Origin: an uncultured Methanomicrobiales archaeon
Lineage (GTDB): Archaea; Halobacteriota; Methanomicrobia; Methanomicrobiales; Methanospirillaceae
DNA: 64,000 bases
Direction of reading: 5' to 3'
Assembly (NCBI GenBank): GCA_963697895.1
Contig: OY969100.1
Span: forward strand, 2,027,726-2,091,725
Shown: one piece after another, positions 5,588-28,048 of the stretch
Layout of the letters: each line of letters begins with the position of its first letter
How positions within the stretch are numbered: the stretch's first letter is position 1
Made by a program: the position numbers and the translations under genes
The notes under the pieces: generated by a model
What the model was told of the DNA's origin: nothing
The model's database searches: none
What the model saw: the letters and a program-made list of their open reading frames with translations, nothing else

Positions 5588-5589
5588 GG

Positions 5590-6060: not shown

Positions 6061-6076
6061 TCGTATCCTGAGAGAT

Positions 6077-7540: not shown

Positions 7541-7835
7541 GATCTGCATTCAAATAATATTTTATATAATAGTATTAAAATATTTATGAAAATTAGGGGA
7601 ATATTCAAATATTAGATATATTTTTGGTTTCAAGTGTTTGGGGAGTATTACGATTTTTAAAAAATATGTGATATTATGTTATTGATATCGACAATTTTTC
7701 AGAAAATCCGTTGCGCTTCCCGCTTGGTGGGGAACACATTTTTCACCGATTTTTGAAGGAGATCGGGTAAGGATACAATGACATGTTCTTCAGCTGAATC
7801 AGTACCCACCCGGAGATGCCGCTCAAAAAAAAATA

Positions 7836-8636: not shown

Positions 8637-8648
8637 CTCCTCATCCCC

Positions 8649-10361: not shown

Positions 10362-10363
10362 CC

Positions 10364-12078: not shown

Positions 12079-12092
12079 GCTCCTTTCCTCCC

Positions 12093-12518
12093 TTATCTGG
12101 TCAGATCGGGGAGCGGGCTCGGGCCGAGATCGCGGACGGTCTTGATCACATCATCAACCACTTTTGCCCACTTCGCTCCCTCAGATGCCGATACGAATGT
12201 CATCCGGAGCCGCTTATCTTCAAGACCAATGTTCCTCAGGAGGCTCTTTAAGATGAACATCCGTTTTGCGGCTTTATAGTTCCCTTCAAGATAATGACAG
12301 TCCCCGAAATGGCACCCGGAGACGAGAACACCATCTGCACCATCACTGAACGCCTTCAGGATGAAGAGCGGGTCGACACGACCGGTGCACATGACACGGA
12401 CGATCCGGATGTCCGGCTGATACTGGGTCCGGGCACTTCCGGCCAGGTCTGCACCGGCATAAGAGCACCAGTTGCAGACGATACCGAGGATTTTGGGTTT
12501 CCACTCTGGATCTGCCAT
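12093..12518 (-). CDS. mvhD: MvhD/FlpD [2Fe-2S] subunit
   Basis: CNWCSYAGAD, VMCTGRV and GCHFGDCHY. Confidence 0.97.
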   Translation of the reverse strand: MADPEWKPKILGIVCNWCSYAGADLAGSARTQYQPDIRIVRVMCTGRVDPLFILKAFSDGADGVLVSGCHFGDCHYLEGNYKAAKRMFILKSLLRNIGLEDKRLRMTFVSASEGAKWAKVVDDVIKTVRDLGPSPLPDLTR

Positions 12519-14626
12519 TACTTCGCACCTCCCAGGAGGAAAGCGTCAATCTGTGCCACGATCTGCGGGGTTGCAAAGTGCTGCATCCATATTGCGCCAC
12601 CCGGGCAGAATCCGCCGCAGGTACCACAGCCTTTGCATTTAGCCTCCGTGACCTGCATCACTTTTCGTCCGTCTTTCTCGACGAGGGAAAGCGCATTGTA
12701 CGGGCAGAGGTTCACGCACATACCACATCCGGCACATTTCTCCTCCATACACTGGGCGAAGTAGGGTTCGAGCTCGACTTCCCCCCGCTGGATCGGGATA
12801 CTTGCCGCCGATGCGGCTCCCTCCGCGGAGGCGACGGTATCGGGGATATCCTTCGGTCCCTGGCAGACACCGGCAAGGAATACTCCGGCCGTGGTTGTTC
12901 CGCAGGGGTTCAGCTTGGGGTGTGCCTCCATGAGCCATCCGTCCATGGAACAGGAGACCCCGAAGAGTTTCCTGGTCCGGTCCGTATCCGAGGAAGGCTG
13001 GACTGCGGCAGCAAGCACCACAAGGTCAGCATCGAGCCTCATCGGACGGTCGAGGAGCGTGTCGTCTGCGATGACGGTGAGATTCTTGCTCTCTGCATCC
13101 TCGAGGATATTCGATACCCGGCCACGGATGAATTTCGCTCCTTCATCCTGGATCCGGTAATAGAACTCCTCGTACATCTTGCCGAATGACCGGATATCCA
13201 TGTAGAATATATATGGTTGTACACCCGGGATCTTCTCGATGATCTGGTGTGCATGCTTCAGGGAATACATGCAGCAGAACCGGGAACAGTATGGTTTTCC
13301 GACTCCGGTGTTGTCACGGGACCCTGCACAGAGGATGAACGCGACCTTCTTCGGAGTCACCCCATCGCTCGGGCGGACCAGGTGGCCGCCGGTCGGTCCG
13401 GATGCACAAATGAGCCGCTCGAATTCAAGGCTCGAGATCACATTATCGAACTTCTTGTACCCCCATTCATCCTTCTTCTCGATGGGGAAGATGTCATAGC
13501 CGAGTGCCAGGATGGCGGTCCCGACCTTGACTTTAACGAACGAATCCTCCTGCTCGAGTTCGATTGCCTTCTTGTCGCCGCAGGCGGTGACACAAAGGCC
13601 GCACTTTATACAGGAGTCCTTGTCGACGGTATAAATGAGCGGGACAACCTGTGGGTGGTTGATATAAATCGCCTTCCGCGGCTTCATCCCCATCTCAAAC
13701 TCGTTCGGCTGGATCACCGGACATACCGGGTCACAGTCACCGCAGCCGTTGCAGCCACCTCCAACGATGCCCTTAGCTTCCGCCTCTGCCGGGGTGAGCA
13801 CACCGCGGGCTTTCTTCCGGAGTGTCACATCGAAATTACCGATATACCCCTCCACAGAGTCTACCTCGGTATAGGTCATGAGCTCGATGTTTTCCGACCT
13901 TCCGACATCCACCATCTTCGGGGTGAGGATACACTGGGAACAGTCCAGGGTCGGGAAAGTCTTGTCCAGCTGGGACATGCGTCCGCCGATCGTCGGGCTC
14001 TTTTCGATCAGATAGGTCTTGATGCCTGCATTTGCAAGATCGAGTGCCGCCTGCATACCGGCGATACCTGCACCGACCACCATTGCCGCCCGTTCTACGG
14101 GGACAGCCTTCGGAATCAGGTCCTCAAGCAGGGAGGCCTTGGCAACCGCAATCCTTACGGCGTCCTTTGCCTTATCTGTGGCGCCCTCGCGGTCATGCAT
14201 ATGTACCCAGGCGTTCTGCTCACGGATATTGGCCATCTCAAAGCGGAAAGGGTTGATACCTCCTTCCTTGGTTGCGGTCCTGAATGTCGGTTCATGGAGC
14301 CGGGGAGAACATGCCGCAACAACCGTGCCAGTGAGGTTATGTTCCTTTATTGCGTCCTCGATGATCTTCTGACCGGGGGTCGAACAGACATACTGGTAAT
14401 TTGCCACGAAGGCTACATTCGGGAGTGTCTTCGCATAATCCTGGACAGCATTGATGTCGATCGAACCCGCGATGTTCGTTCCACAGTGACAGATGAAGAC
14501 ACCGATCCGCGCCTCTTTCGTATCCGGAGACCGCTTTATTGCCGGTGCCGCTTTCGCTTTCACTTCCGCCTTTTGTTCCTTCTTCGATGCAGTTGATTCT
14601 TTCTTTGATTTTTTCGCTTCGGCCAT
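12518..14626 (-). CDS. hdrA: Heterodisulfide reductase subunit A
   Basis: CHCGTNIAG, ACSPRLHE, GAGIAG FAD motif, DKTFPTLDCSQCI, CSRFCC and C-terminal ferredoxin. Confidence 0.98.
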   Translation of the reverse strand: MAEAKKSKKESTASKKEQKAEVKAKAAPAIKRSPDTKEARIGVFICHCGTNIAGSIDINAVQDYAKTLPNVAFVANYQYVCSTPGQKIIEDAIKEHNLTGTVVAACSPRLHEPTFRTATKEGGINPFRFEMANIREQNAWVHMHDREGATDKAKDAVRIAVAKASLLEDLIPKAVPVERAAMVVGAGIAGMQAALDLANAGIKTYLIEKSPTIGGRMSQLDKTFPTLDCSQCILTPKMVDVGRSENIELMTYTEVDSVEGYIGNFDVTLRKKARGVLTPAEAEAKGIVGGGCNGCGDCDPVCPVIQPNEFEMGMKPRKAIYINHPQVVPLIYTVDKDSCIKCGLCVTACGDKKAIELEQEDSFVKVKVGTAILALGYDIFPIEKKDEWGYKKFDNVISSLEFERLICASGPTGGHLVRPSDGVTPKKVAFILCAGSRDNTGVGKPYCSRFCCMYSLKHAHQIIEKIPGVQPYIFYMDIRSFGKMYEEFYYRIQDEGAKFIRGRVSNILEDAESKNLTVIADDTLLDRPMRLDADLVVLAAAVQPSSDTDRTRKLFGVSCSMDGWLMEAHPKLNPCGTTTAGVFLAGVCQGPKDIPDTVASAEGAASAASIPIQRGEVELEPYFAQCMEEKCAGCGMCVNLCPYNALSLVEKDGRKVMQVTEAKCKGCGTCGGFCPGGAIWMQHFATPQIVAQIDAFLLGGAK

Positions 14627-14640
14627 TTTCGTCTCCTCCA

Positions 14641-15537
14641 TCACAGGATCTTCTGCAGGAACGGCTCGCAGCTGATCGCATGGAGATCCAGTGCAAGTTC
14701 CTGCGGGGTCATTCCCTGGGCGAGCCCGAGCAGTTCATTGTAGTGCAGGACGGGAAGGTCATAGCTCACGCCAAACTTTTCCTTTATTTCAATCTGTCCG
14801 CGGTCGAACTGAAGCTGACAGAACGGACAGATATCAGTGAGTGCATCGATGCCCATCTTGGACAGCGTGATCAGTTTCTCGTTGGCAATATCGAGTGCGT
14901 GAACAATATCATAACCGCGGACACCACCACCGGCGCCACAACAGAGCATCTTGTTCCGGTATTCCACCGGCTCTGCGCCGAGGGCCGCGACCATCTCTTC
15001 GATCCAGACCGGGTGCTCTGTGGTTCCGAAGTGACGCTCTTTCCGGGGTTTCATCAGGTGGCAGCCATAATGCACCGCGATTCGGGTGCCCGTGAGCGGG
15101 TTCGTCACACTGTCCCGGATCTTTTTAACACCGACGATCTTCGGGTCGTATAAGAGTTCTGCAAGGTGGTAGACCTCAATGGAGCCCTTATATTCCATAT
15201 CGATCTCTTTCAGTACCTCATTGACCCCGTCACGAAGCTCTTCGTTGTGCTTGAGTTTATGGTTCACTTCCCAGATGGACTTATAGCAGCCATTGCAGAT
15301 CAGAGCGATATCCTTCTTCATCTGTTCCGCAAGCACGATATTCCGGGCAGCCATCGCATACCATACATTCAGGTCAATCGATCCAAACGCACCTGGTGCG
15401 GGGCAGCAGCTGGCGCCCTCGAGGTCCAATAATTTGATCCCGAGCTTCTCCGAGGTCCGGTACGATGCCGCTTCGGAGCCGGGGTACCGGTTGGGTGCGA
15501 TGCATCCGAGATAAAACGCGTATTCGTGCATCAGCAT
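14641..15537 (-). CDS. hdrB: Heterodisulfide reductase subunit B
   Basis: Two CCG-type domains: SCCPAPG, HYGCH, CCGAGGG and CPFCQLQFD. Confidence 0.98.
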   Translation of the reverse strand: MLMHEYAFYLGCIAPNRYPGSEAASYRTSEKLGIKLLDLEGASCCPAPGAFGSIDLNVWYAMAARNIVLAEQMKKDIALICNGCYKSIWEVNHKLKHNEELRDGVNEVLKEIDMEYKGSIEVYHLAELLYDPKIVGVKKIRDSVTNPLTGTRIAVHYGCHLMKPRKERHFGTTEHPVWIEEMVAALGAEPVEYRNKMLCCGAGGGVRGYDIVHALDIANEKLITLSKMGIDALTDICPFCQLQFDRGQIEIKEKFGVSYDLPVLHYNELLGLAQGMTPQELALDLHAISCEPFLQKIL

Positions 15538-16119
15538 TCACCCCTCTCGTTCCTTAACAATTCTGTCTGCATTCTTCTTCAGCTCGAAATGATCAAGGAT
15601 CTTCTGGATACCCTTGATATAATCGGGTCTCCCGTGTGTTGTCGGGGGGTCTGCGGGAAGACCGAGTTTCACGCGTGCCGCCCTGTTGACATCATTGTTC
15701 GGCACGCCATGGCCCGTGGTATAAATCGCCTGTACCGTCTTCAAGAAATTGACCGGTATGATATCGCGCTTGAATGCGAGATTCCTCATGGCCATGATCA
15801 CATCGGTTGGTGCGATATCCCTCGGGCACCGGTCTGTACAGCTGTAACAGGTTGTGCAGAGCCAGAGGTCCGGGTCAACAAGTGCTTCATTTTCGAGCCC
15901 GAGCAATGCTCTCCGGACAAACTTACGGATTCTATAGGAGCTTCGGGGTGCAGAAGGACATGATGCGGTACAGGTCCCGCACTGGTAGCACATGTGTGGA
16001 ATGGTCATCGAGATCTTTTCCACGGTCTTCGTGAACGCGGGGTTCGAGTCCTCATCGTATAAATTGCGGTCCTTCAGTTTGTTTTCGAGTGCTTCAGGGT
16101 AACCTTTGGTTTTTGCCAT
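15538..16119 (-). CDS. hdrC: Heterodisulfide reductase subunit C
   Basis: CYQCGTCTASCP and WLCTTCYSCTDRCPR. Confidence 0.97.
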   Translation of the reverse strand: MAKTKGYPEALENKLKDRNLYDEDSNPAFTKTVEKISMTIPHMCYQCGTCTASCPSAPRSSYRIRKFVRRALLGLENEALVDPDLWLCTTCYSCTDRCPRDIAPTDVIMAMRNLAFKRDIIPVNFLKTVQAIYTTGHGVPNNDVNRAARVKLGLPADPPTTHGRPDYIKGIQKILDHFELKKNADRIVKEREG

Positions 16120-16129
16120 GTCTCATTCC

Positions 16130-17293
16130 TCACGCCTTCTCCGTAACCTTGAGTTGCACCTCTCCCGGCGTCTCTTCTTTCACCTTGGAAGTCCGGGGTG
16201 TGCAGAGCTTCTCTTTGATCTTATTGTACAGATCCGTCTCTTTACCGGTGATTCGAATGCCTGTCCGGTGAAGGAGAATGATATCCTCACCTGGACATGC
16301 ATTCACGCACGCACCACAAAGAATACAGAGATCTTTGTTCACCGCAATGGTCGGCTCTATCTGGCCTTTCATCTCGGCTGCCGGTTTGGAGCTCGGGAGG
16401 TAAATGGCATTTGCAGGACAGATCTCTACGCAGGTGGAACAGCCACCGGGGCATTTTTCCGCATGGAATTCGATATCGCCCTCAAAGATCTTTTCAACGG
16501 TGATCGCCTCGGTCGGGCAGTTCCGGGAGCACCAGGTGCAGGTACAACAGAGATCCTTGTCGATGTCGACTTTACCGGGCATCTTGTCGCTCTCGATCTG
16601 CCGTTCGACGGTGATACATTCCTCCGGGCACATCTCGACACAGACCATGCATGCATCGCATTTGCTCTCATCCCAGACGACTTCTCCCTGAATATTTCCG
16701 GATTCGGCTGTGAACTCCTTGTGTTTCACATCGATCGCCGGGCAGAGTGCTCCACAGATCCCGCAGAGCGTGCATTTCTCCATATCCACCTTGAATGTGG
16801 TTTTGCTGGTCAGTGCCGTCTGCCGGTCCTTGGCGCCTTCAGCAGCGCCTTCGAACTCGGGGACATTTCTGATGATCGCATCACGCGGGCAGACCTCGTC
16901 ACAGATGGTGCATTTCACGCATTTTTCGTCGCTGATTTCTGCAACGATATTGTACTGTGGGAATCCCTCCTTCTCGATAATGGGAAGGCGTTCCTCGTTA
17001 TCCACTTTGAGCGTCAGTGCATTGAACGGGCACATGATTACACAGACGCCACAGTAAACGCATTTTGTCTCATCGATATCGACCGGAGCCGCATATTCGA
17101 CCACTCCCCGCTTGGTTGCCCCGACGAGCCCGAGGGCAATCGCATCTTCAGGGCATGCCTCAACGCAGACCCCGCACCCCGTGCATACCTCTGCGTTCAG
17201 AATCAGGTCTGAAACTTGCTGGAGAAGCCGCTGCTCTCCGGTAACATTCACACCTTCCCGTTTCTTGGAATATTTAGGATAAATCGTTGTCAT
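16130..17293 (-). CDS. fwdF: Polyferredoxin FwdF
   Basis: Eight CxxCxxCxxxCP-type motifs; position in the operon. Confidence 0.93.
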   Translation of the reverse strand: MTTIYPKYSKKREGVNVTGEQRLLQQVSDLILNAEVCTGCGVCVEACPEDAIALGLVGATKRGVVEYAAPVDIDETKCVYCGVCVIMCPFNALTLKVDNEERLPIIEKEGFPQYNIVAEISDEKCVKCTICDEVCPRDAIIRNVPEFEGAAEGAKDRQTALTSKTTFKVDMEKCTLCGICGALCPAIDVKHKEFTAESGNIQGEVVWDESKCDACMVCVEMCPEECITVERQIESDKMPGKVDIDKDLCCTCTWCSRNCPTEAITVEKIFEGDIEFHAEKCPGGCSTCVEICPANAIYLPSSKPAAEMKGQIEPTIAVNKDLCILCGACVNACPGEDIILLHRTGIRITGKETDLYNKIKEKLCTPRTSKVKEETPGEVQLKVTEKA

Positions 17294-17589: not shown

Positions 17590-18346
17590 GTTTTTATCAC
17601 GCACCAGATTGGATCGATTAAAAAATCGACTAAAGAAGAATGGTTAACTAATGTAGATAAACTCTTCTGATTTCTCCCTGTTATGACGGCAATTTGGGCG
17701 GGTATGATTAATTATTTGTTTTTATTTAGTAAATAAGTTAACTGAAATACCATAAAATACGCCGGAGACCCCTGCGTTCATCAGGTGCTTTCATTCATTT
17801 CAGTCATAGAATAAAAATCTGTTGGTCTTTTCCTTCTTTTTGTAAAGGAGGGTTATATAGTTGTCTTTTGTGAAATTATTACGTAATATCTAGGTACTCG
17901 GGAAAAAAATCGGGAAATCTTTTAGATTATTTTCGTCATTCCTGAATCCTGTCGTCCCTTCATTTCCCTATTCTAATCCCCGTTTTTATCCGCGTATGGT
18001 TAATGCTTTGATATTGACATAACTGGATTCTCACTCGGGAGACGGGTAGATTAACGGTACGATTTCTGGTTCGATTCCGGATCGGGTTGAATTCCGCGGT
18101 CTCATTCCGGAAAAACTGCAATTGGTTTTCGGCAAAACCGGGATAGGGGTATGATCCTGTTATTGATCCACACCCCGGATATTTCTGCAAAGAATATGGA
18201 GAACCGGGATTCGTCAGGGGATTTTCGGGTTTTCACTTTTTTTTATTTTCTCGGGTTTGATCCATCCGGAGTCCGCTAGGAGAATCGCAATAAGAAAAAG
18301 TTATTTTCATCGCTTACCGTACCTCCTGATGAAACGAGGTTGTGAA
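17590..18346. promoter_or_regulatory. Divergent AT-rich control region for the fwd-hdr operon and ftr
   Basis: About 750 bp, AT-rich, several TATA-like boxes, no credible ORF. Confidence 0.55.
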
Positions 18347-19231
18347 ATGGAACTAAACGGTGTACCGATTGATGATACCTACGCTGAAGCATTTCCGATA
18401 TGGATTTCGAGGGTCATTATCACTGCAGTAACAGAAGAATGGGCCTACAGGGCCGCAACTGAAGCGACAGGATTTGCGACATCTGCGATCGGCTGTCCGT
18501 GCGAGGCAGGAATTGAGAGTATGCTCAGCCCGGATGAGACCCCAGATGGAAGGCCCGGGGTATCAATCCTCATATGCACGGCCAAGAAGAAAATGAAGGA
18601 ACAGCTCATAGAAAGAATTGGAGAGTGTATTTTTACCGCTGCCACAACGGCGGTATTTGACGGTCTTCCGGAAGCAGAAGAAAAAATACCTGTGAAATTA
18701 CACTTCTTCGGGGATGGATATGAATACAAGAAGGAACTGGGGGGACGACAAGTCTGGGCGGTGCCTATCATGTCCGGAGAATACATCGGTGAGGAAGAGT
18801 TCGGGATTATGAAGGGTGTTGCAGGGGGCAACTTCTTTGTGATGGGGGAGAATCAAATGGCTGCACTAATGGGTGCCCAGGCAGCGGTCGATGCAATAGG
18901 TTCTGTTTGTGGAGTAATAACGAGTTTCCCCGGAGGCATCGTAGCCAGCGGCTCGAAGGTGGGTTCGAACAAATATAAATTCATTCCTGCGAGCACAAAT
19001 GAAAAATACTGCCCAACCCTTCGTGATAAGGTCCCGGACAGCAAGGTGCCGAAAGGGGTGAATGCGATGTTCGAGATAGTTATCGATGGTCTGGATGAGA
19101 GCTGCGTATCAGAGGCGATGGCAGAGGGAATCAGGGCGGCAGTCATGGTACCGGGAGTCAAATACATCAGTGCAGGAAATTTTGGAGGCACTCTCGGGCC
19201 ATTTAAATTCGAACTGCATAAAATCCTTTAA
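18347..19231 (+). CDS. ftr: Formylmethanofuran:H4MPT N-formyltransferase
   Basis: IDDTYAEAF, GCPCEAGIE, TPDGRPG, GVAGGNF and SAGNFGGTLG. SD GAGGT precedes ATG 18347. Confidence 0.98.
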   Translation: MELNGVPIDDTYAEAFPIWISRVIITAVTEEWAYRAATEATGFATSAIGCPCEAGIESMLSPDETPDGRPGVSILICTAKKKMKEQLIERIGECIFTAATTAVFDGLPEAEEKIPVKLHFFGDGYEYKKELGGRQVWAVPIMSGEYIGEEEFGIMKGVAGGNFFVMGENQMAALMGAQAAVDAIGSVCGVITSFPGGIVASGSKVGSNKYKFIPASTNEKYCPTLRDKVPDSKVPKGVNAMFEIVIDGLDESCVSEAMAEGIRAAVMVPGVKYISAGNFGGTLGPFKFELHKIL

Positions 19232-19375
19232 TTTTATTTCTGCACCATTTCGATTTCTTTAAATATCTCATTACCGATTATTCTGTTAACGATAATTTCG
19301 GCGACAAAATTTTCCCTTCAGGGGGCATTCGAATTATCAGATCGGAGTATCGGGTAAACGGAAAGGCGGCGATAT

Positions 19376-20269
19376 ATGGCGAATATCCCTGATCCCTATC
19401 TCATTCGCTATCCGCAGATTGTGGCAGTTGCTGATGAGGCAGATGCCCGGATTGAGCTCATCGAATTTTTCGAATGTACCGGCGGGGCGATGTGGTCAAA
19501 GTACCACTACATTCAGAGTCCACTGGTCGAGTCGGTGCGGCATGTCGGGGGGACCATCCGGTATATGCTGAAAACGGGAGCGGTAGATCTCGCACTGGAG
19601 GGATCCCGATTCCCTGCAGGGATATCGGGGGCCTCTGTCAGCAACGACGAGATCATCATCAGCTATATCGGCATCGGCGGGGGTGGCGTCGGTGCTGCGG
19701 GATGCAGGGCAAATGCGGGGGGTGTGCTCCGGTGCGAAAGCGACCCTTCAGGGGGAGGACGACAGGCTGGTGCAACGATCTGGCTTCCAAGGCAGACACG
19801 GGTCCTGATCGGGATCGATGACACGGATACCCCTGAACAGGGAGCTACCTGGACGCTGGTGCATAATATCGCGAAGGCAGTGGAAGATTGTGCGACCCGT
19901 TATCTCTCGCACACTATTGTACAGCTCTATCCCGTGCCGTACCGGACCAAGAACTGCGTCAGTCTGGTATGTGAATTCGCTTCATCCGACCCCCTGACGC
20001 TTATAGAACGGTTTCGACAGCTCCTGGAACGGTATACCCTGTCAGACGAGACGGGTATGGCGGTGTTCAGCGGTTTCGATCCGTCTTTTCTGTATCCATT
20101 TGGAAGGAAAGTGAAATGTGGAGAAATCTCCCGGGATCTCCTGATGGAGATACGGGACCCGAGACTCCGCATCATGATGAATGGCCGCGGTATTATCGGG
20201 GCGGTCGCGGCAATACCGTTCTATACCCGGTATGAGGAGGCGCTTGCACTGTGCGATGGGTCGAGCTGA
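19376..20269 (+). CDS. Methanogenesis marker protein 11 (C-terminal TiaS-like GIDDTD domain)
   Basis: ECTGGAMW, GGGGVGAAGCR, IGIDDTDT.EQGATW, HTIVQLYP..RTKNC and GIIGAVAA. Confidence 0.85.
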   Translation: MANIPDPYLIRYPQIVAVADEADARIELIEFFECTGGAMWSKYHYIQSPLVESVRHVGGTIRYMLKTGAVDLALEGSRFPAGISGASVSNDEIIISYIGIGGGGVGAAGCRANAGGVLRCESDPSGGGRQAGATIWLPRQTRVLIGIDDTDTPEQGATWTLVHNIAKAVEDCATRYLSHTIVQLYPVPYRTKNCVSLVCEFASSDPLTLIERFRQLLERYTLSDETGMAVFSGFDPSFLYPFGRKVKCGEISRDLLMEIRDPRLRIMMNGRGIIGAVAAIPFYTRYEEALALCDGSS

Positions 20270-21222
20270 AAGCGGCGCTGCTCTCCCGGGGGACGGCCCG
20301 CCTGACCGGTGCGCCGGCAGATGCATATATAGCCCGCTCCGCGGCCGGCCCCGGGGCGGGAGGTTCAGGATCGGTTTTTTTTTCCCTGGACAACCGGTGC
20401 GTACGCCTTGCCGTAGATCCGAACAGCAGTATTCTCATCAACCATCAGGGATGCGGAAAGGCAGTGCTCGTTATGGACGGGAATACGTGGTATGGCAGGC
20501 TGGAACCAATCGGTCTCCATTGTCCCCGACAGGCATACATCACGATAAGCGGCAGCTGCATCTACCATTGCCGGTACTGCCCTGTCCCGGCACAGGGAGG
20601 AAGGAGGAAATCAGTGAATGAGATAGTGGAGATGGTCAGTGTGGCGAAGGATCGCATCGATGCTATCGCTATTACGAGTGGTGTCGCGACAGCGATCCGG
20701 GAGGAGGAGGTGTACATGATTTCGGTGATAAAAGCACTCATTCCACTGGGCATCCCGATGGGGGTATCGATATACCCTACACCGGAGACTCCCCGCCTTC
20801 TCCATGAACTGGGGGTCGTGGAGGTCAAATTCAACCTCGAAACGGCGACCCCGGAACTCTTTACACGCCTCTGCCCCGGTCTTGACCGGGACCTGATGTG
20901 GCTGGTACTGAAAGAATCGGTGGATCTCTTCGGTCGGGGGCATGTCTTCTCCAACGTGATCATTGGACTCGGGGAATCCGACGAGGAGATGCGCTCCTGC
21001 ATACGCGCCCTGACGGCCATCGGGGTGATTCCGGTGTTGCGACCCCTGAACCCCGCGGCCGAACTCTCGGGATTTTCGCGTCCTTCACCAGAACGGCTGA
21101 TGCGGCTTGCGGATTTCCACCAAAGAGCGCTTGAAGAGGCAGGACTGGATCCCTGTCAGGCAATTTCGATGTGCACCGCCTGTACCGGGTGCGACCTGGT
21201 ACCCGGGAGGGATATTCCATGA
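20251..21222 (+). CDS. Radical SAM protein, biotin-synthase-related, function unknown
   Basis: CIYHCRYC (CxxxCxxC), NLET, IIGLGESD and C-terminal CTACTGC. Confidence 0.9.
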   Translation: MRWVELKAALLSRGTARLTGAPADAYIARSAAGPGAGGSGSVFFSLDNRCVRLAVDPNSSILINHQGCGKAVLVMDGNTWYGRLEPIGLHCPRQAYITISGSCIYHCRYCPVPAQGGRRKSVNEIVEMVSVAKDRIDAIAITSGVATAIREEEVYMISVIKALIPLGIPMGVSIYPTPETPRLLHELGVVEVKFNLETATPELFTRLCPGLDRDLMWLVLKESVDLFGRGHVFSNVIIGLGESDEEMRSCIRALTAIGVIPVLRPLNPAAELSGFSRPSPERLMRLADFHQRALEEAGLDPCQAISMCTACTGCDLVPGRDIP

Positions 21223-22490
21223 GAGGAGAGGAGGCGATCGCAGAGGCGCTCATGATCTCTGCCGATCGTTGGTACAGTGTCCCGGGGTTTCCTATCACGG
21301 GTCTCGGTGATCGGGTGGGTGCAGAAATGGTCATCAATGAGAAGACAGCGCTTGAGTATGCGCTCGGAGATTCTCTTACGGGACGAAGAGCGGCCATCAT
21401 TGTCAAGAATGTAGGGTTGAATGCATGTGCCGACCCGCTCCTGCAGGCGACGGCACAGGGGCTCATCCGCGGGGTCGTTATTGTTGCGGGGGACGATCCC
21501 GATGCACAGGGATCCCAGACCGCCCAGGACTCGCGATACTACGGAGAACTCGGGGAACTACCGGTGATAGAACCGGACGTAAGAACCTGTTATACGGGTG
21601 TGGAAGCGGCGTTCCAGGCATCGGAGCAGTTTTCACGTGTTGCGATAGTGCGCATCACCCCGGGGATCCTCGGTACGGTCGTCGATCGGCATCCCGTCGA
21701 ACGGCAGGATCGGAATGGCAGGTTGTCCGACCGATCATGGACAATGCAGGGGCGGGTGACAGCCGCTGAAGAACTGTACCGGACGATGTTCACCTGGTCT
21801 TCCCGCTCTCCCCTGAACCGGTGGGAGGGGGATCCGGCAGGGGTAGGTGCGGCAGAAGGAAGGACCCGGATCGTGACGGTTCACCCCATGCCGGAGCAGG
21901 CTGCCGGAATACCGGTGGTGCATGAATCCGGGCGGAGTTTTGTCCGGGACCACCGGGGGCTTCCGCCCCCGGAACCGCAAAAAAGCCCGGAAAAACGGAA
22001 GGACAGAGGATATTACCGGACCTTCTGTGCATCGTGTCCGTTCAGACCCCTGCTGGATATCCTCAAAGAAACAGATATTCAGGTGATCTGTGATGCGGGG
22101 TGTTCGGTGCTCGCGATGACCCCTCCCTATGAAATGGGCGTGGCCAGTTACGGGATGGGTGCGAGTATCGCCGTTGCCGCGAGAAGCACGGGGGTTGCTC
22201 TGATTGGTGACTACGCTATTCTCCATTCGGGAATAAACGCACTTATTGACGTATATGAGAAGAGAATTCCCCTGTTATGTATCGTGATGAAGAACCGATG
22301 TACAGCAATGACCGGAAAGCAGCCGATCCCGGATTCGATCCCTTATCTTGCCTGGGCAAAACCGGTCATCTGTGATGCGGATGACGAGGGCCGGCTGCGG
22401 ATGGTCATCAGACGCCCTGAAATGCCGGGAACCGTGATCGTAGAAGGCGAGTGTCCTGTCGGGGCCACGCACGCATTCGTGGAATGTTAA
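21219..22490 (+). CDS. TPP-dependent enzyme, truncated IorA-like (no C-terminal ferredoxin domain)
   Basis: VPGFP, NEKTALE, KNVGLN..ADP, GDDP..SQ..QDSR, FCASCP, DAGC and the TPP motif IGD...HSG...N..TAMTG. Confidence 0.85.
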   Translation: MRGEEAIAEALMISADRWYSVPGFPITGLGDRVGAEMVINEKTALEYALGDSLTGRRAAIIVKNVGLNACADPLLQATAQGLIRGVVIVAGDDPDAQGSQTAQDSRYYGELGELPVIEPDVRTCYTGVEAAFQASEQFSRVAIVRITPGILGTVVDRHPVERQDRNGRLSDRSWTMQGRVTAAEELYRTMFTWSSRSPLNRWEGDPAGVGAAEGRTRIVTVHPMPEQAAGIPVVHESGRSFVRDHRGLPPPEPQKSPEKRKDRGYYRTFCASCPFRPLLDILKETDIQVICDAGCSVLAMTPPYEMGVASYGMGASIAVAARSTGVALIGDYAILHSGINALIDVYEKRIPLLCIVMKNRCTAMTGKQPIPDSIPYLAWAKPVICDADDEGRLRMVIRRPEMPGTVIVEGECPVGATHAFVEC

Positions 22491-22535
22491 CCGGGGTTCG
22501 TGGAATGAACAGGAATTGCATGGGGGAAACCTGAA

Positions 22536-23666
22536 ATGAAGCCGTGGAATATTGAGATCTGTGATGTAACGTTGAGAGACGGTGAACAGACTCCGGGGGT
22601 GTCGTTCACCTGTGAGGAGAAAGTGAAGATCGCCGGAGTGCTGGACGAGATCGGAATCGACGTCATCGAGGTGGGATTTCCGGTCGTTTCTCCGTACGAA
22701 AAACACTGCGTGACAGCGATCGCTCACCTGGGACTGGATGCCCGCATCTGCTGCCTTGCCCGTGCACGAAAAGTGGATGTGGAGCAGGCGATCGACTGTG
22801 ACGTCGGGATGGTGAGCATCTTCATCGCTACATCTGACCTCCATATCCGGCATAAATATAAGAAACCCCGCGAACAGGTGGTTGGTGAAGCGCTGGAACT
22901 GATCGAATTCGCGCACGATCATGGTGTGGAGGTACGGTTCGCGGCCGAGGATGCATCCCGGACCGACCCTGTCTTCCTCGGGGAAGTGTACCGGCAGGGG
23001 CAGGAATACGGCGCCGACCTGCTTTCTTTCGCCGATACCGTCGGATGCCTTACGCCCCTGGATATGTACCGGATCATGCTGGAACTGGTCTCCGCTCTCG
23101 ATCGACCGCTCTGTGCACACTGCCACAACGATATGGGATGTGCGACGGCAAACACGATCACCGCCGCAGAGGCCGGGGCGTTCCAGCTGCATACAACGGT
23201 AAATGGTATCGGGGAACGTGCCGGCAATGCAGCGCTCGAAGAGGTGCTGGTCGCTGTCAGGATGCGTGGCGGAGTGGACCGGTATGATCTTTCTTATCTC
23301 ACGGGTCTTTCACGGCTTGTCGAAGAGTATTCCGGGATACGGATTGCCAAGACCAAACCGGTCGTCGGTGAACATGCCTTCTCGCACGAGAGCGGGATCC
23401 ATATCGCGGCAATCCTCGAAGATCCATCCACCTATGAATATATCCCCCCTGAACTCGTAGGAGGCGAACGCCGGTTTATCCTTGGAAAACATACGGGAAA
23501 GAAGGCGCTCGAATATGTGGTCTCGACCCTCGGATATCAACTTGATGAAAAGCAGATATGCCGGGTTCTTGACGAAGTAAAGGAGCTTGGGGAGAGTAAA
23601 TGCGGGATAACTCCCGATACGCTCACCGCCCTTATACGCCATGTACAAAAGGAGCAGATCGGATGA
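22536..23666 (+). CDS. aksA: Homocitrate synthase family (2-oxoacid elongation)
   Basis: DVTLRDGEQTPG, HCHND, GERAGNA and HESGIH. Lacks the LeuA regulatory domain; clustered with aksDEF. Confidence 0.85.
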   Translation: MKPWNIEICDVTLRDGEQTPGVSFTCEEKVKIAGVLDEIGIDVIEVGFPVVSPYEKHCVTAIAHLGLDARICCLARARKVDVEQAIDCDVGMVSIFIATSDLHIRHKYKKPREQVVGEALELIEFAHDHGVEVRFAAEDASRTDPVFLGEVYRQGQEYGADLLSFADTVGCLTPLDMYRIMLELVSALDRPLCAHCHNDMGCATANTITAAEAGAFQLHTTVNGIGERAGNAALEEVLVAVRMRGGVDRYDLSYLTGLSRLVEEYSGIRIAKTKPVVGEHAFSHESGIHIAAILEDPSTYEYIPPELVGGERRFILGKHTGKKALEYVVSTLGYQLDEKQICRVLDEVKELGESKCGITPDTLTALIRHVQKEQIG

Positions 23667-24874
23667 GCACTCTTTCGGAACGGATCCTCTGCGGCACGGC
23701 AGGCGAGTATGTGGACCGGCATGTCGACCGTGCGTACGTGCATGACGGAACAGGGGTGCTGACCCTGGATGCATGGCGGAGATTGGGAGAGATGCCCGTG
23801 GCTTATCCGGAACAGTGTGCAATCATCTTTGATCACATCGTTCCGGCAAATACTGCCACGACAGCGATACTGCAAGCGGAGCTCCGTGAATTTGCCTCCT
23901 GTACCGGTATCCGGTTCTCTGAAATCGGTGGCGGGATCTGCCACCAGGTCATGAGCGAGGGAGAGGTGCTGCCCGGTGAGGTGGTGGTGGGCGCCGATTC
24001 CCACACCTGCACCCTCGGGGCCTTCGGTGCGTTTGCAACCGGTGTCGGGGCGACGGACATGGCCGCAATCTGGGCATCAGGCTCCACCTGGTTCCGGGTT
24101 CCCGAGACACTCGCGATCCGGCTGTTGGGGAGGCTCACGGCTCCGGCCGAGCCAAAGGATCTCGCCCTAAAGTACGTCGGGCTCCTTGGGATGGATGGCG
24201 GGGCATACCGGGCGCTCGAATTCGTGGGGGAAGGCGTGGAGAGCATATCGATGGACGGCAGACTCACCCTGTGTAACCTGGCGGTTGAAACCGGTGCGAA
24301 GACCGGGCTCTTTTACGCGGACGGCACGACATGCCGGTATCTCGAGAGGTACGGGCAGACAATCCAACCCCAGGTCCCACAGGACTGCTGTTATGAGCGT
24401 GAGTATCCGATCGAGTGCAGCGAGATCGTTCCTCTGATTGCCATCCCGCCGCGGGTGGATACCATTCGTCCCGTAAGCGATCTAGCAGGTCTCGGAATCG
24501 ACCAGGTTCTGGTGGGAACGTGCACAAACGGCCGCTTTGAAGATCTTGAGCGATTTGCACGGATCGTCCGGGGCAGGAAGGTTGCAGTCAGAACAATTGT
24601 TGCACCCGCCTCCCGCGAAATTCTGGAGAACGCAATCCGAACAGGGGTACTCGCCGATATCGTTGCAGCAGGCTGCACGATCATCACCCCGGGCTGCGGA
24701 CCCTGTCTCGGTGCCCATGCAGGGGTGATCGGGGAGGGGGAGATCTGCCTTTCCACGGCAAACCGGAATTTCCGGAACCGGATGGGTGTCGGAGGGGATA
24801 TATACCTCTCGTCGGTCGCCACCGCAGCGGCGAGCGCTTTGACCGGGGAAATCACCGAACCGGAGGTTTGCTGA
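23663..24874 (+). CDS. aksD: Homoaconitase large subunit
   Basis: GICHQ, GADSHTCT, GTCTNGR, PGCGPCLG and STANRNF. Confidence 0.82.
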   Translation: MSTLSERILCGTAGEYVDRHVDRAYVHDGTGVLTLDAWRRLGEMPVAYPEQCAIIFDHIVPANTATTAILQAELREFASCTGIRFSEIGGGICHQVMSEGEVLPGEVVVGADSHTCTLGAFGAFATGVGATDMAAIWASGSTWFRVPETLAIRLLGRLTAPAEPKDLALKYVGLLGMDGGAYRALEFVGEGVESISMDGRLTLCNLAVETGAKTGLFYADGTTCRYLERYGQTIQPQVPQDCCYEREYPIECSEIVPLIAIPPRVDTIRPVSDLAGLGIDQVLVGTCTNGRFEDLERFARIVRGRKVAVRTIVAPASREILENAIRTGVLADIVAAGCTIITPGCGPCLGAHAGVIGEGEICLSTANRNFRNRMGVGGDIYLSSVATAAASALTGEITEPEVC

Positions 24875-25344
24875 TGCGGATGGAAGGAACGGCGATCTGC
24901 CTCGGGCCGGATATTGATACCGACCAGATCATTGCCGGGCGGTATCTCAGGACGAAGGATCGGCGGATATGGGCTCTGCACGTCTTTGAAGATCTCGATC
25001 CGGGTCTTGCAAACCGCCTGGATGGTGCCGTGATCATCGCCGGGAAAAACTTCGGCTGTGGGTCCTCACGTGAACAGGCTGCAATCGCCCTGAAAGAGGC
25101 GGGACTCAGGGGCGTTATTGCGCCGAGCTTCGCCCGGATATTTTTCCGGAATGCGATTAACATCGGGCTTCCCCTTGCCGAATGTTCCTGTTCCTGCGTT
25201 GAGGGGGCGTTCTTGAGCGCCGACCTCGGTTCAGGAATTGTCGAACTGAACGGGGAACGTTACCGAATCCGGCCACTATCGCCCCGTATGCTCGAAATTC
25301 TCACATCCGGAGGGCTGGTGGAATACTGGAGGGAGAGAGGGTGA
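24874..25344 (+). CDS. aksE: Homoaconitase small subunit
   Basis: IDTDQII, NFGCGSSREQA, and the YLRT loop typical of methanogen homoaconitase rather than LeuD. Confidence 0.87.
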   Translation: MRMEGTAICLGPDIDTDQIIAGRYLRTKDRRIWALHVFEDLDPGLANRLDGAVIIAGKNFGCGSSREQAAIALKEAGLRGVIAPSFARIFFRNAINIGLPLAECSCSCVEGAFLSADLGSGIVELNGERYRIRPLSPRMLEILTSGGLVEYWRERG

Positions 25345-26156
25345 TCTTTCCGCGAGAGTGTAAGGAGGTCGGCTATGCTTCGACAAAACCCTGTGGAGAC
25401 CGGACGTATTTCCTCTCGAGGTACCTGATCCATGAGACCCCTGCCGGAGATGAGATCCTCGAGGTAGAGCCTGACCCTGCCGGGACGGGATTGATGCGGG
25501 ACCTGATCAGAACCCGGGTGATTGCCACCGCTGGGGATGTCCACCGGCATCCTGAAAAGGTGAACCTGTATGACCGTGCGCGTCTCGTACGGATTGCGTC
25601 CGAAAGCGGGTACAGGTGCACGATATTTTCCGGACGGGATGAACATACTACGTTTGTGCTTGATTCCGATCTCTCCTCTTTCCTTACGGTCCACGTCTAT
25701 GATAATTTTCCCCCGCTGCCGGCCCTCTCGTCCGCCATCTGCGAACAGGAGGCGTGCGGGCTATACGGGGAACTCGACATTCTCTTCGAACATCATGTGC
25801 AGGATGTCGGAAGGAGGGCCGCCGACGTCTTCCCCTGCAGGGCTGCCGGCTTCTCGCGGACGCTCGACGCGGACCGGATGCAGGGGGGGGAGCGCATGGC
25901 AGGGTGCCTGACCGGGGCCCAGCTGTATCGTGAATGTTACGACGGGGAATTCACTCTGGAGGATATCTGCCCGGTCTCTTCGGTAATGTCAGAGCCCTTC
26001 ATCACCCGCTGCTGCCGAAGCGAGCGTGAAGGGACAGGGATCCACCATGGGCGGTTCGGTACGATCGTTCACTGGGGTGCCAGTCCATGTACAATTCTCC
26101 GGGCAGTCCACGAGGTGGTTCGGGGGTGGAGGGAGCATGCAGATCGCGGTCGTTGA
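25341..26156 (+). CDS. Cys-rich hypothetical protein
   Basis: 271 aa, overlaps both neighbours. Motifs: CKEVG, PCG..YFLSRYL, FPCRA, GCLTG, ICP and RCCRSER. Confidence 0.8.
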   Translation: MIFPRECKEVGYASTKPCGDRTYFLSRYLIHETPAGDEILEVEPDPAGTGLMRDLIRTRVIATAGDVHRHPEKVNLYDRARLVRIASESGYRCTIFSGRDEHTTFVLDSDLSSFLTVHVYDNFPPLPALSSAICEQEACGLYGELDILFEHHVQDVGRRAADVFPCRAAGFSRTLDADRMQGGERMAGCLTGAQLYRECYDGEFTLEDICPVSSVMSEPFITRCCRSEREGTGIHHGRFGTIVHWGASPCTILRAVHEVVRGWREHADRGR

Positions 26157-27108
26157 GGGGGACGGTATCGGCCACGAAGTGGTACCGGTCGCACGGGATC
26201 TGCTTGCCGTGATGAGACCCGATTTTGAGTTTTTCCAGGTGGAGGTCGGGTTCGGACGGTGGGAGCGCGATGGTCACGCGATCACCGATGAAGACATCCA
26301 AATGCTGGGATCCGCGGATGCAATCCTGTTCGGGGCGGTGACGACCCCACCCACTCCCGAATACCGGAGTGTGGTGGTTCAGATCCGGAAGGCACTCGAT
26401 CTGTTCGCGAACGTCCGTCCTGTATCAGGGGACGATGTGGATCTGGTGATCGTCCGGGAAAATACCGAAGGGCTCTATACGGGGATCGAGACGATCGAGC
26501 CGGACCGGGCGACCACCCTCAGGGTGATAACCCGGAAGGGAACCGAGCGGATTGCCCGGTATGCCTGCGGTCTTGCCAGGCACCGGATGCACCTGACGAT
26601 CGGTCACAAAGCGAATGTTCTCAAATCCGATCTGTTCTTCCGGGGTATCTGCCTGGAGGAGGCAAATCTCGCTGACGTTCCCTGCGGGGAATGTCTCATC
26701 GATGCACTCTGCCTGGACGTTCTCCGCCATCCCCGGGCGTATGACGTGATCGTTACGTCGAACCTTTTTGGGGATATCCTCTCGGATGTCGCGGCATATC
26801 TGGTAGGTGGTCTGGGCATGCTCCCGAGCGCCAATATCGGTGATCGGCATGCCCTCTTTGAACCTGTACACGGGAGCGCCCCTGACATCGCAGGAAGGGA
26901 CCTTGCAAATCCTGTCGCTGCGATACGGAGTGGAGCGATGCTTCTCCGCCATCTTGGGGATGACGGGTCGGCAAGAATGGTCGAGGACGCAGTCACAAAA
27001 ACGCTTGCGCGTGGAGTAAAAACATGCGATATAGGTGGAAACGCAGGCACAAGGAGATTCGGGCGTGAGGTCCGCGATACATTGGCTTCAATGAAGCGAC
27101 CCGGATAA
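26137..27108 (+). CDS. aksF: Homoisocitrate/isopropylmalate dehydrogenase family
   Basis: GDGIGHEV, RENTEGLY, NLFGDILSD and EPVHGSAPDIAG; operon context. Confidence 0.82.
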   Translation: MQIAVVEGDGIGHEVVPVARDLLAVMRPDFEFFQVEVGFGRWERDGHAITDEDIQMLGSADAILFGAVTTPPTPEYRSVVVQIRKALDLFANVRPVSGDDVDLVIVRENTEGLYTGIETIEPDRATTLRVITRKGTERIARYACGLARHRMHLTIGHKANVLKSDLFFRGICLEEANLADVPCGECLIDALCLDVLRHPRAYDVIVTSNLFGDILSDVAAYLVGGLGMLPSANIGDRHALFEPVHGSAPDIAGRDLANPVAAIRSGAMLLRHLGDDGSARMVEDAVTKTLARGVKTCDIGGNAGTRRFGREVRDTLASMKRPG

Positions 27109-27196
27109 GGAACCATACCCTCATTGAACATCGGGATACCCGGGTGTTATTAAGGCGGAGTACAAAAAATGCCTCTGACAACGGAAGAGGTTTCCC

Positions 27197-28048
27197 ATGG
27201 TGAAAGTCGGTGTGCATGTCTCCATCGCGGGTTCGATCGCAAAGGCAGTGGACAGGGCTGGAGAAATCGGGTGTGACACATTCCAGATCTTTTCCCGTAA
27301 TCCCCGCGGATGGCAGTCCAAGCCGCTCTCCGAAGAGGATACTGCACGATTCCGGGATAACCTGGATCGGTCCGGAATCTGGCCGCCGGTCGATCATATG
27401 CCTTACCTTCCGAATCTTGCGACGGAAACCCCGGAGCACTATGAAAAGACTGTGATGACACTCACCGAGGAGCTTGTACGGTGCGAGCGGCTGGGAATTC
27501 CATACCTGGTGACACACCTCGGGCACTACCATGCCGGGGGTATCGGGCAAGGCCGCGAACGGGTTATCGCCGCCATTAACGCCGCACTTACGGAAGTGGA
27601 AAACCCGGTCGTGCTTCTCCTGGAAAACACCGCTGGCGAGAAGAACGGGGTTGGGAACCGGTTCGAGGATATCAGGTCGGTGATCGAGGGAATAACTGAC
27701 CAGAAGCGAATAGGGGTCTGTTTCGACACCTGCCATGCATTCGGTGCGGGATACGAACTCCGGACGGAGAAGGGGCTTGAACTAACCCTTGCCCAATTCG
27801 AGGCTGCAATCGGTATCGGTAAGATGAAAGCAGTTCACTGTAACGACTCCAAGGGCGACCTCGGGAGCGGCCTTGACCGCCATGAGCATATCGGTCTCGG
27901 CTTCATCGGAGAGGAAGGGTTCCGGACTATTCTCCATCATCCTGTCTTCCGGGATCTCCCGCTCATCTGTGAGACGCCTGTGGATGCCCGTCGGGGTGAT
28001 AGCGGGAACATCCGGAAGGTCCGGGAGCTTGCCGGTCCTTTAAAGTAA
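27197..28048 (+). CDS. nfo: Endonuclease IV
   Basis: GVHVSIAG, HMPYLPNLA, LENTAG, DTCH, HCNDSK and DRHEHIG. Confidence 0.95.
   Translation: MVKVGVHVSIAGSIAKAVDRAGEIGCDTFQIFSRNPRGWQSKPLSEEDTARFRDNLDRSGIWPPVDHMPYLPNLATETPEHYEKTVMTLTEELVRCERLGIPYLVTHLGHYHAGGIGQGRERVIAAINAALTEVENPVVLLLENTAGEKNGVGNRFEDIRSVIEGITDQKRIGVCFDTCHAFGAGYELRTEKGLELTLAQFEAAIGIGKMKAVHCNDSKGDLGSGLDRHEHIGLGFIGEEGFRTILHHPVFRDLPLICETPVDARRGDSGNIRKVRELAGPLK

Follow-up and report, generated by a model that had tools for sequence, protein, structure and literature searches.

We analyzed a window of 64,000 nucleotides (the whole stretch of DNA considered here, numbered from its first letter) from an uncultured Methanomicrobiales archaeon, contig OY969100.1, the host genome being a single contig of 2.09 Mb. 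Eight genes on the + strand at positions 19376-27108 probably constitute one operon for making coenzyme B (CoB), which is the reading best supported by their sequences and neighborhoods. No methyl- or alkyl-coenzyme M reductase reaction proceeds without CoB (7-mercaptoheptanoylthreonine phosphate), and the CoB precursor 2-oxosuberate is made by AksA, AksD/E and AksF, which elongate 2-oxoglutarate. To our knowledge, ever since labeling work traced the pathway, its late steps (decarboxylation, thiol formation, threonine ligation and phosphorylation) have lacked assigned genes. The operon carries four uncharacterized genes among the aks genes, and the case for a role in CoB synthesis is strongest for the thiamine pyrophosphate (TPP) enzyme and the DUF7714 protein, good for mmp11, and weakest for the radical SAM enzyme.

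Open reading frames (ORFs), translations, and Pfam and NCBIfam family calls agreed on the same-strand gene order given in a preliminary description of this DNA. Start codons were inferred from the ORFs and from where homolog alignments begin. The genes are as follows:

19376-20269, + strand: mmp11 (methanogenesis marker protein 11), TIGR03280
20251-21222, + strand: radical SAM gene, PF04055
21219-22490, + strand: IorA-like TPP enzyme, PF02775 and partial IOR_alpha
22536-23666, + strand: aksA type, HMGL-like and HCS_D2
23663-24874, + strand: aksD/hacA-type homoaconitase large subunit, PF00330, aconitase large subunit
24874-25344, + strand: aksE/hacB-type small subunit, aconitase small subunit, YLRT loop
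25341-26156, + strand: DUF7714 Cys-rich protein, PF24830
26137-27108, + strand: aksF-type homoisocitrate dehydrogenase, PF00180 (Iso_dh)

The ORF coordinates also bear out the junctions reported before: in order, a 19-nucleotide overlap, ATGA, a 45-bp gap, ATGA, TGATG, GTGA, and a 20-nucleotide overlap. The only non-overlapping junction is the 45-bp gap from the TPP gene to aksA, in which a pattern scan found no TATA-like match.

Gene neighborhoods carry most of the argument. Within the phylum, 20 kb around mmp11 was compared in 20 genomes, giving 8 loci from the window's order and 12 from outside it (families are designated f1, f2, and so on, with f1-f6 making up the window's order). The full arrangement mmp11-radical SAM-TPP-aksA-aksD-aksE-DUF7714-aksF was found in 7 of the 8 loci, which come from six families, so that the order is more than chance; the exception, L038, has a different arrangement, in which no TPP gene turned up. 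Outside the order, mmp11 was followed by an IorA-like TPP gene in 6/12 loci (f7, 4/4; f14, 1; f24, 1), adjoined a radical SAM gene in 4/12 (f8, 2; f14, 1; f16, 1), and had neither neighbor in 2/12 (f10). A further 20 loci around DUF7714 were drawn from families outside the order, and in all 20 the gene directly adjoined aksE and/or aksF: 12 read aksE-DUF7714-aksF, one DUF7714-aksE, and seven had the IorA-like TPP gene, aksA on the divergent strand, and aksD-aksE-aksF-DUF7714.

An archaea-wide scan with one genome per species and an mmp11 alignment as query returned 589 relatives, from which 80 named loci were kept and annotated with hidden Markov models (HMMs) built from the phylum loci, as well as with Pfam and NCBIfam. 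The mmp11 gene stood next to a radical SAM gene in 21 of the 80 (including Archaeoglobaceae, Geoglobus, a Bathyarchaeota metagenome-assembled genome [MAG], Methanodesulfokora, NM3, a Methanocellales MAG, and Hydrothermarchaeum) and next to an IorA-like TPP gene in 12 (Methanothrix, Methanolobus, Methanoperedens, and Methanocella). Ten loci of the Methanomethylicia type read aksD-aksE-IlvB-type TPP enzyme-mmp11, the TPP enzyme being built of TPP_N/M/C domains over 524-537 amino acids (aa); their aksE loop is YLRS, and they include aksA in 7, mmp4 in 8, and a GMC-type oxidoreductase in 9, while one further short contig held the TPP-mmp11 pair only. Five Methanofastidiosa-type loci began mmp11-aksA, followed in 4 by an IlvB-type TPP enzyme, and two Thermoplasmata loci read aksA-mmp11. 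The Methanocella locus L158 was arranged as mmp11-TPP-aksA-aksD-aksE-aksF-DUF7714, and Hydrothermarchaeum as mmp11-radical SAM-DUF7714. No partner for mmp11 was seen in 13/80 loci, mostly short contigs. Mmp4/MtxX, the function of which is still described as unknown in the part of PMC12978539 that deals with it, was found in the neighborhood of mmp11 in 15 loci; in the window's genome it is encoded at 774132-774878.

As far as gene order can tell, the neighborhoods of independent lineages thus connect all four uncharacterized genes to aks, either directly or through each other. The synteny check suggested by the preliminary description therefore came out in its favor for DUF7714, the TPP enzyme, and mmp11, each of which adjoins aks in several lineages, with the radical SAM gene linked via mmp11. 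Two differently built TPP enzymes occupy one slot beside aks and mmp11, and therefore a TPP-dependent 2-oxoacid decarboxylation appears to be needed there; we regard this as the strongest single argument for such a step.

In side observations on the same loci, the GMC-type FAD (flavin adenine dinucleotide) oxidoreductase, of ~390 aa, has mmp11 or the IlvB-type TPP gene as its neighbor in clusters of the Methanomethylicia and Methanofastidiosa types (L092, L095, L109, L110, L114, L118-L120, L125, L128, L136, L137, L139, and L141) and may stand in for DUF7714. In Candidatus Hydrothermarchaeum profundi (L143:8624-12767), an MtmB-like gene lies directly upstream of mmp11-radical SAM-DUF7714 and mmp4 ~6 kb downstream; we take methyl-coenzyme M reductase (MCR) to be lacking in this lineage.

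The IorA-like enzyme matched PF02775 at 36 bits and TIGR03336 (IOR_alpha) in two stretches at 154.8 bits, versus a cut-off of 650.9. The genome's true IorA, which is encoded elsewhere and scores 821 bits on TIGR03336, can be aligned with it across the PYR and PP domains. The TPP-binding motif GD-x27-N (G330, D331, N359) was invariant in 16/16 sequences, as were C270, C273, and C295, which align with the IorA cluster motif. The middle and C-terminal ferredoxin domains of IorA are absent, an iorB partner was not found nearby, and a search against the PDB returned nothing meaningful. The protein thus resembles a cut-down IorA that shares the catalytic domains, TPP motif, and three cluster cysteines of its relative but differs in domain content and in standing without IorB. 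We give a little better than an even chance to its being the 2-oxosuberate decarboxylase, which would yield 7-oxoheptanoate. By analogy, the sulfopyruvate decarboxylase ComDE of coenzyme M (CoM) synthesis also turns a 2-oxoacid into an aldehyde that receives a thiol, but its architecture is not homologous to that of the window's enzyme. Eight IorA-like matches from other genomes contained one in-frame stop each (TAG in G137, G130, and G106; TGA in G170, G263, and G023; TAA in G182 and G218), which may reflect read-through, either upstream of the true start or within the variable middle part.

DUF7714 matched PF24830 over its full length (264.6 bits versus a gathering threshold of 25) and is a protein of 271 aa with 13 Cys. 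Nearly its whole length also aligned with the XcbA family NF052538 (E 7e-9; 35.4 bits versus a cut-off of 150), and 32/32 aligned DUF7714 members matched that family at E <= 0.001, the best at 2.5e-34; these scores suggest a distant homolog, rather than a member, of the family. Five cysteines were invariant (C166, C189, C210, C224, and C225), which would be compatible with an Fe-S cluster. XcbA and DUF7714 share several conserved Cys and a place in thiol-cofactor operons; they differ in that DUF7714 scores far under the family cut-off, has an archaeal host, and neighbors aks rather than xcb. According to the account of it in PMC9457059, XcbA is a [2Fe-2S] thioaldehyde reductase that converts sulfoethanethioaldehyde to CoM in Xanthobacter. 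A corresponding role for DUF7714, as a candidate Fe-S reductase in forming the thiol of 7-mercaptoheptanoate, is in our estimate an evenly balanced proposal: sulfur would be added to the aldehyde, and DUF7714 would reduce the resulting thioaldehyde to 7-mercaptoheptanoate, as XcbA does for CoM. The AlphaFold model of DUF7714 (pLDDT 92) had no Foldseek match at E <= 0.001, a sequence search against the PDB gave nothing meaningful, and the best VIA-align hits (Z 7.9 at most) were generic alpha/beta folds covering residues 110-271 only, which identify nothing.

The mmp11 product scored 318.7 bits on TIGR03280 (cut-off, 255.8) in a full-length match over residues 12-290. Its 297 aa comprise an N-terminal domain of its own (~140 aa) followed by a TiaS-type kinase domain with an IGIDDTD motif; Pfam matches were TiaS_TCKD (45.5 bits) and TiaS_FLD, and GIDDTD was invariant in the alignment. 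The model of an mmp11 ortholog (pLDDT 89) matched TiaS (3AMT) in Foldseek at E 2.7e-9 over ~155 residues of the C-terminal half with ~25% identity, which together with the TiaS_TCKD match agrees with the ATP-using GIDDTD domain described beforehand. By sequence, the PDB search gave only a weak match (3U02, E 0.1). TiaS, the tRNA(Ile2) agmatidine synthetase, therefore has the kinase-domain fold and GIDDTD motif in common with mmp11 but differs in its OB and zinc-ribbon RNA-binding domains, both absent from mmp11, and lacks the N-terminal domain of the latter; the TiaS equivalog model NF040849 reached 17.9 bits (cut-off, 600), on the C-terminal half only. TiaS activates a carbonyl by ATP-dependent phosphorylation, after which an amine attacks, and it also phosphorylates threonine. 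Both last steps of CoB synthesis require ATP, and the chemistry of TiaS is, by analogy, of the type they need. That mmp11 is the ATP-dependent ligase and/or kinase of these steps falls slightly short of an even chance; it would activate the carboxylate for the threonine amide and/or phosphorylate the threonine hydroxyl, and these steps may be shared with an mmp11 paralog and Mmp4, whose genes lie in other parts of the genome. A tandem paralog (31-33% identity) lies just upstream of mmp11 in 5/8 loci of the order (L035, L036, L037, L040, and L041). In the window's genome the paralog is not in tandem but located elsewhere, at 1592369-1593637 (27-33% identity; 123 bits on TIGR03280, under the cut-off), and two mmp11 copies with mmp4 also occur in the NM3 and Methanodesulfokora loci.

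The radical SAM enzyme matched PF04055 (51.1 versus 29.5 bits) and has two Cys triads, CX3CX2C (C103/C107/C110) and a C-terminal CX2CX2C (C308/C311/C314), both present in 34/34 relatives. Its nearest models were variant_rSAM, MSMEG_0568, and LipS2, and the second three-Cys motif recalls those families together with LipA and BioB, but the enzyme stayed under every cut-off: MSMEG_0568 (TIGR04043), 58.1 versus 303.7 bits; LipS2, 53.7 versus 270; lipoyl synthase, 19.7 versus 203; BioB, 19.3 versus 225; and variant_rSAM also weak. The PDB search gave a weak match only, to lipoyl synthase (5EXI, E 0.0039). In other lineages, mmp11-linked relatives scored 221 to 339 bits on MSMEG_0568, two of them over the cut-off. 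A quick, provisional tree separated two clades. In the MSMEG_0568-type clade all 23 rows adjoin mmp11, and the second clade contains class-II-methanogen copies, Hydrothermarchaeum, and a fast-evolving order-specific clade that includes the operon copy. This two-cluster enzyme appears to be an old partner of mmp11, and of the four proteins it is the hardest to place in the pathway, with sulfur delivery one possibility. We know of no sulfur-insertion activity in the operon clade, and a part in sulfur chemistry, as supply or insertion, is a speculative and rather unlikely assignment.

A second radical SAM copy in the genome (1774633-1775604, minus strand; 44% identity) contains an in-frame TAA, and its counterparts in G204 and G284 have one in-frame TGA each. 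It adjoins an 880-aa fused PAPS-reductase-like/SufS-like gene, nadA, and an AIR-synthase-like gene; stand-alone copies had no recurring neighbor in 19 loci annotated with the HMMs built here. An mmp11-radical SAM pair was also seen in L123, a contig labeled uncultured Acidimicrobiales bacterium, which, judged by its long branch and odd composition, is probably mis-binned.

The aks genes of the window seem to form a second set beside a separate leu set. In the genome, HMGL-type synthases number three, and aconitase-type large subunits, aconitase-type small subunits, and Iso_dh genes two each; the second isomerase and dehydrogenase belong to a leuC-leuD-leuB locus at 659-662 kb. There, the Iso_dh exceeded the NCBIfam 3-isopropylmalate dehydrogenase cut-off (409.3 versus 393 bits), on which model the window AksF scored 239 bits; the latter did best on the LEU3_arch and AksF models (AksF2_Meth, 315 bits; AksF_Meth, 299). 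The window AksE has the loop YLRT, as does its top PDB match 2PKP, a homoaconitase small subunit, and the genome's other small subunit has FLIL at this position; we take the YLRT loop to be a determinant of homoaconitase substrate specificity. AksA is a short form of 376 aa with HMGL-like and HCS_D2 only and without the LeuA C-terminal regulatory domain, and its two paralogs in the genome have open frames of 503 and 523 codons. With the other Iso_dh over the LeuB cut-off, FLIL in the second small subunit, and a short aksA, the aks set can be regarded as distinct from leu. AksD exceeded the cut-off of hacA_fam (459.8 versus 385.7 bits) and not that of HacA_Meth (401 versus 550), and AksE reached 156 bits on HacB2_Meth (cut-off, 230). 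These enzymes would make 2-oxosuberate, as established for the family. The same four enzyme families form the Aks pathway of Methanocaldococcus jannaschii, the source of the solved subunit 2PKP with its YLRT loop, but in the window the genes are gathered and interleaved with four further genes, and the proteins fall under the NCBIfam equivalog cut-offs; in M. jannaschii the aks genes are presumably scattered.

Profile searches were run for each gene over 301 genomes of the phylum (mmp11 at E <= 1e-20, window-type radical SAM at E <= 1e-15, and IorA-like TPP at E <= 1e-100). Counts are genomes matched over genomes searched:

f1-f6 (the window's order, 47 genomes): mmp11 47/47; DUF7714 47/47; mcrA 44/47; radical SAM 47/47; TPP under-reported
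f7: mmp11 37/37; DUF7714 37/37; mcrA 37/37; radical SAM 37/37; TPP 34/37
f10: mmp11 24/24; DUF7714 23/24; mcrA 18/24; radical SAM 21/24; TPP 22/24
f14: mmp11 15/15; DUF7714 15/15; mcrA 13/15; radical SAM 14/15; TPP 15/15
f24: mmp11 8/8; DUF7714 8/8; mcrA 8/8; radical SAM 8/8; TPP 7/8
f8: mmp11 14/46; DUF7714 0/46; mcrA 5/46; window-type radical SAM 0/46; TPP 0/46
f12: mmp11 0/5; DUF7714 0/5; mcrA 5/5; radical SAM 2/5; TPP 0/5
f15: mmp11 1/38; DUF7714 0/38; mcrA 24/38; radical SAM 15/38; TPP 0/38
f16: mmp11 3/4; DUF7714 0/4; mcrA 3/4; radical SAM 1/4; TPP 0/4

The TPP tally in the window's own order was 6/47, though synteny shows the gene in 7/8 loci; it is under-reported there because only five first-look candidates were scored, and the TPP tallies are used for other families only. 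The mmp11-linked radical SAM gene of f8 belongs to a different clade than the window type. Among the 301 genomes, DUF7714 was confined to families that hold mcrA. In all searches taken together, DUF7714 and the IorA-like enzyme were seen in no groups other than class-II-type methanogen families and a single Hydrothermarchaeum genome; DUF7714 was found in the Methanosarcina acetivorans control. In the phylum of Methanobacterium, mmp11 exceeded its cut-off in 100/101 genomes. DUF7714 and the IorA-like enzyme are thus lineage-restricted, and mmp11 is widespread and matches mcrA imperfectly in both directions.

Several observations weigh against the operon as a CoB pathway. Searches for DUF7714 came up empty in the M. 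jannaschii control, in four of five named genomes (Methanobacterium, Methanofastidiosum, Methanomethylicota, and a Thermoplasmata MAG; it was found in Hydrothermarchaeum), and in the mcrA-positive families f12, f15, and f16, and mmp11 was matched in 0/5 and 1/38 genomes of f12 and f15, where mcrA was matched in 5/5 and 24/38. Such misses are no proof of absence, because many of the genomes are incomplete MAGs. Conversely, 8 f8 genomes that lack an mcrA match have an mmp11 over its cut-off, and among the named loci mmp11 is accompanied by a radical SAM gene in Archaeoglobaceae, Geoglobus, Bathyarchaeota RBG_16_48_13, and Hydrothermarchaeum. The window Aks proteins fall under the cut-offs of the NCBIfam Hac and AksF equivalog models, which we assume were built on other lineages. 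Oxidative decarboxylation may be possible, since the IorA-like enzyme retains the three cluster cysteines, and XcbA acts on CoM rather than CoB. The genome also has, outside the window, two genes of COG1900, a group regarded in the field as candidates for the thiol step. The COG1900 proteins MMP16/ComF and L-ASST are current candidates for the conversion of aldehyde to thiol in CoM and possibly CoB synthesis, but they are outside the operon and unrelated in sequence to DUF7714 or the radical SAM enzyme; they may act with these or instead of them.

A link between mmp11 and aks in Methanobacteria was considered and rejected. In 16 named Methanobacteriaceae loci and 20/20 further loci, aksD-E-F-like genes with mixed NCBIfam scores lie 0.7-6.5 kb upstream of mmp11, and the loop of the small subunit there is hydrophobic and of the LeuD type (YLVM, YLVL, YLTL, and similar), for which reason these loci were not counted as support; the YLRT copy stands alone elsewhere in 4/4 genomes checked. 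Archaeoglobaceae have two LeuD-like copies per genome, neither with YLRT. Separately, in the Methanobacterium locus L099:7967-9785, the aksF-like gene and mmp11 are separated by a SufS-family cysteine desulfurase gene and ribH, and Methanosphaera has ribH only in that place.

Taken with these points, the expectations of the preliminary description held in part. Its suggestion that the four genes have chemistry fitting the missing steps agrees with the families and folds of the TPP enzyme, DUF7714, and mmp11, and agrees least with the radical SAM enzyme. Its claim of a near-complete CoB pathway is favored by the synteny that ties the four genes to aks but is held back by the non-universal DUF7714 and TPP enzyme and by mmp11-radical SAM pairs without mcrA. 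Likewise, the phylogenetic profiling it called for confined DUF7714 to families with mcrA and also exposed this lack of universality and the imperfect correspondence of mmp11 and mcrA. As proposed here, the pathway is not universal: parts of it are lineage-specific, with other enzymes apparently used in other lineages.

A tentative and, in full, unlikely extension of the CoB reading would make the late pathway a mosaic around a near-universal mmp11, with the decarboxylase and the thiol-forming reductase replaced between lineages. Under this single proposal, mmp11, its paralog, and the PTA-like Mmp4 would form the threonine amide and/or the phosphate ester, the TPP enzyme would be IorA-like or IlvB-like, and the reductase would be an XcbA-like protein, a GMC flavoprotein, or COG1900 proteins. 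Should it be right, the sets of mmp11, radical SAM, and Mmp4 or DUF7714 retained by Archaeoglobaceae, Hydrothermarchaeum, and some Bathyarchaeota would imply continued synthesis of CoB or a CoB-like thiol in these MCR-less archaea, for example for Hdr-type enzymes.

The same mismatch between mmp11 and mcrA, in the f8 genomes, in f12 and f15, and in the mmp11-radical SAM pairs of the Archaeoglobaceae and other archaea named above, also suits a different account, in which mmp11 and the radical SAM enzyme (with Mmp4 in other lineages) are an old module with a product other than CoB that merely stands beside aks in this order. That product could be another thiol or cofactor that methanogens have in common with some non-methanogens, or the module could modify a macromolecule; the TiaS relatives do act on tRNA. 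The portion of PMC9635834 on the survival of markers in non-methanogens interprets them as repurposed remnants. We nonetheless consider this account unlikely, given that mmp11 adjoins a short aksA or an aksE with YLR(S/T) in unrelated arrangements (Methanomicrobiales, Methanomethylicia-type, Methanofastidiosa-type, Thermoplasmata, and a Methanocella locus) and that, at 297 aa and with its low score on the TiaS equivalog model, it is devoid of the RNA-binding domains of TiaS.

Less probable still is that DUF7714 serves CoM synthesis, reducing sulfoethane thioaldehyde as XcbA does, and has no part in CoB. XcbA, its sole characterized relative, makes CoM, and the lineages with DUF7714 presumably use the cysteate route to CoM, which we count for this option. 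Residual CoM synthesis after deletion of MMP16 in M. acetivorans would also accommodate it, but the preprint passage reporting this attributes the residue to L-ASST (bioRxiv 10.1101/2025.02.10.637553). Gene order points to CoB instead: DUF7714 lies inside the aks block in 7/8 loci of the order and beside aksE/aksF in all 20 loci outside it, and no com gene was seen adjoining it.

It is very improbable that the IorA-like enzyme oxidatively makes a pimeloyl product for biotin, which 2-oxosuberate also feeds, with the radical SAM enzyme serving biotin or another sulfur cofactor in the manner of BioB or LipA. The three invariant cysteines in register with the IorA cluster motif, and the weak BioB, LipA, and LipS2 matches, would fit such a role, but the cluster has no ferredoxin domain, iorB-like subunit, or bio genes, an IlvB-type enzyme of the decarboxylase/carboligase kind fills the slot in other lineages, and the TPP gene is tightly linked to the methanogen marker mmp11. 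Lastly, the option raised earlier that the aks-like genes are leucine/isoleucine paralogs and the cluster unrelated to CoB can be set aside as extremely improbable: the proteins do miss the HacA_Meth, HacB, and AksF equivalog cut-offs, and Leu and Hac types score close together on family models, but the separate leuC-leuD-leuB locus with its dehydrogenase over the LeuB cut-off, the YLRT loop of the solved homoaconitase subunit, and the short aksA, beside two long paralogs that can serve as LeuA and CimA, speak otherwise.

The view that the late CoB steps lack firmly assigned genes stands. A literature search, part of which was swamped by unrelated terms (MMP11, coenzyme B12, Aksaray), returned no paper assigning mmp11, the operon radical SAM enzyme, the IorA-like enzyme, or DUF7714 to CoB. 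In the relevant entries of a 2011 Methanothermobacter gene inventory, CoB is represented by Aks-type enzymes only (PMC3087415), and the pertinent text of a 2025 preprint merely proposes COG1900 proteins for the CoB thiol step (bioRxiv 10.1101/2025.02.10.637553). The operon and its relatives supply named, testable candidates for each late step. If the CoB reading is true, marker protein 11 and DUF7714, and perhaps Mmp4, would gain a function, the gene set for MCR expression in foreign hosts would be closer to complete, methane inhibitors would have new targets, and the cofactor capacity of uncultured archaea could be judged better.

The surroundings of the operon match their earlier description as lying after ftr and near hdr and mcr operons. 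A minus-strand methanogenesis block (mcrBDCGA, fwd-like genes, mvhD-hdrABC, and polyferredoxin) occupies positions 1-17293 upstream, and the features are as follows:

2474-4183, - strand: mcrA, within mcrBDCGA
4180-4944, - strand: mcrG
6077-7417, - strand: mcrB
7836-12078, - strand: fwd-like genes
12093-12518, - strand: mvhD
12518-14644, - strand: hdrA
14641-15537, - strand: hdrB
15538-16119, - strand: hdrC
16130-17293, - strand: polyferredoxin
18257-19231, + strand: ftr, formylmethanofuran:tetrahydromethanopterin (H4MPT) formyltransferase, NF002554, 448 bits, over the cut-off
19232-19375, + strand: AT-rich intergenic spacer of 144 bp, with an oligo-T tract right after the ftr stop and TATA-like TTTAAATA at 19258

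Inspection of the sequence and a simple pattern scan mark the spacer as a putative promoter of the operon, and ftr is probably an upstream neighbor on a separate transcript; it precedes the mmp11 cluster in 6/8 loci of the window's order. Runs of at least five T numbered five in 19001-27400, versus 2.8 expected from shuffles, and a run of nine T lies at 20375-20383, inside the radical SAM coding region.

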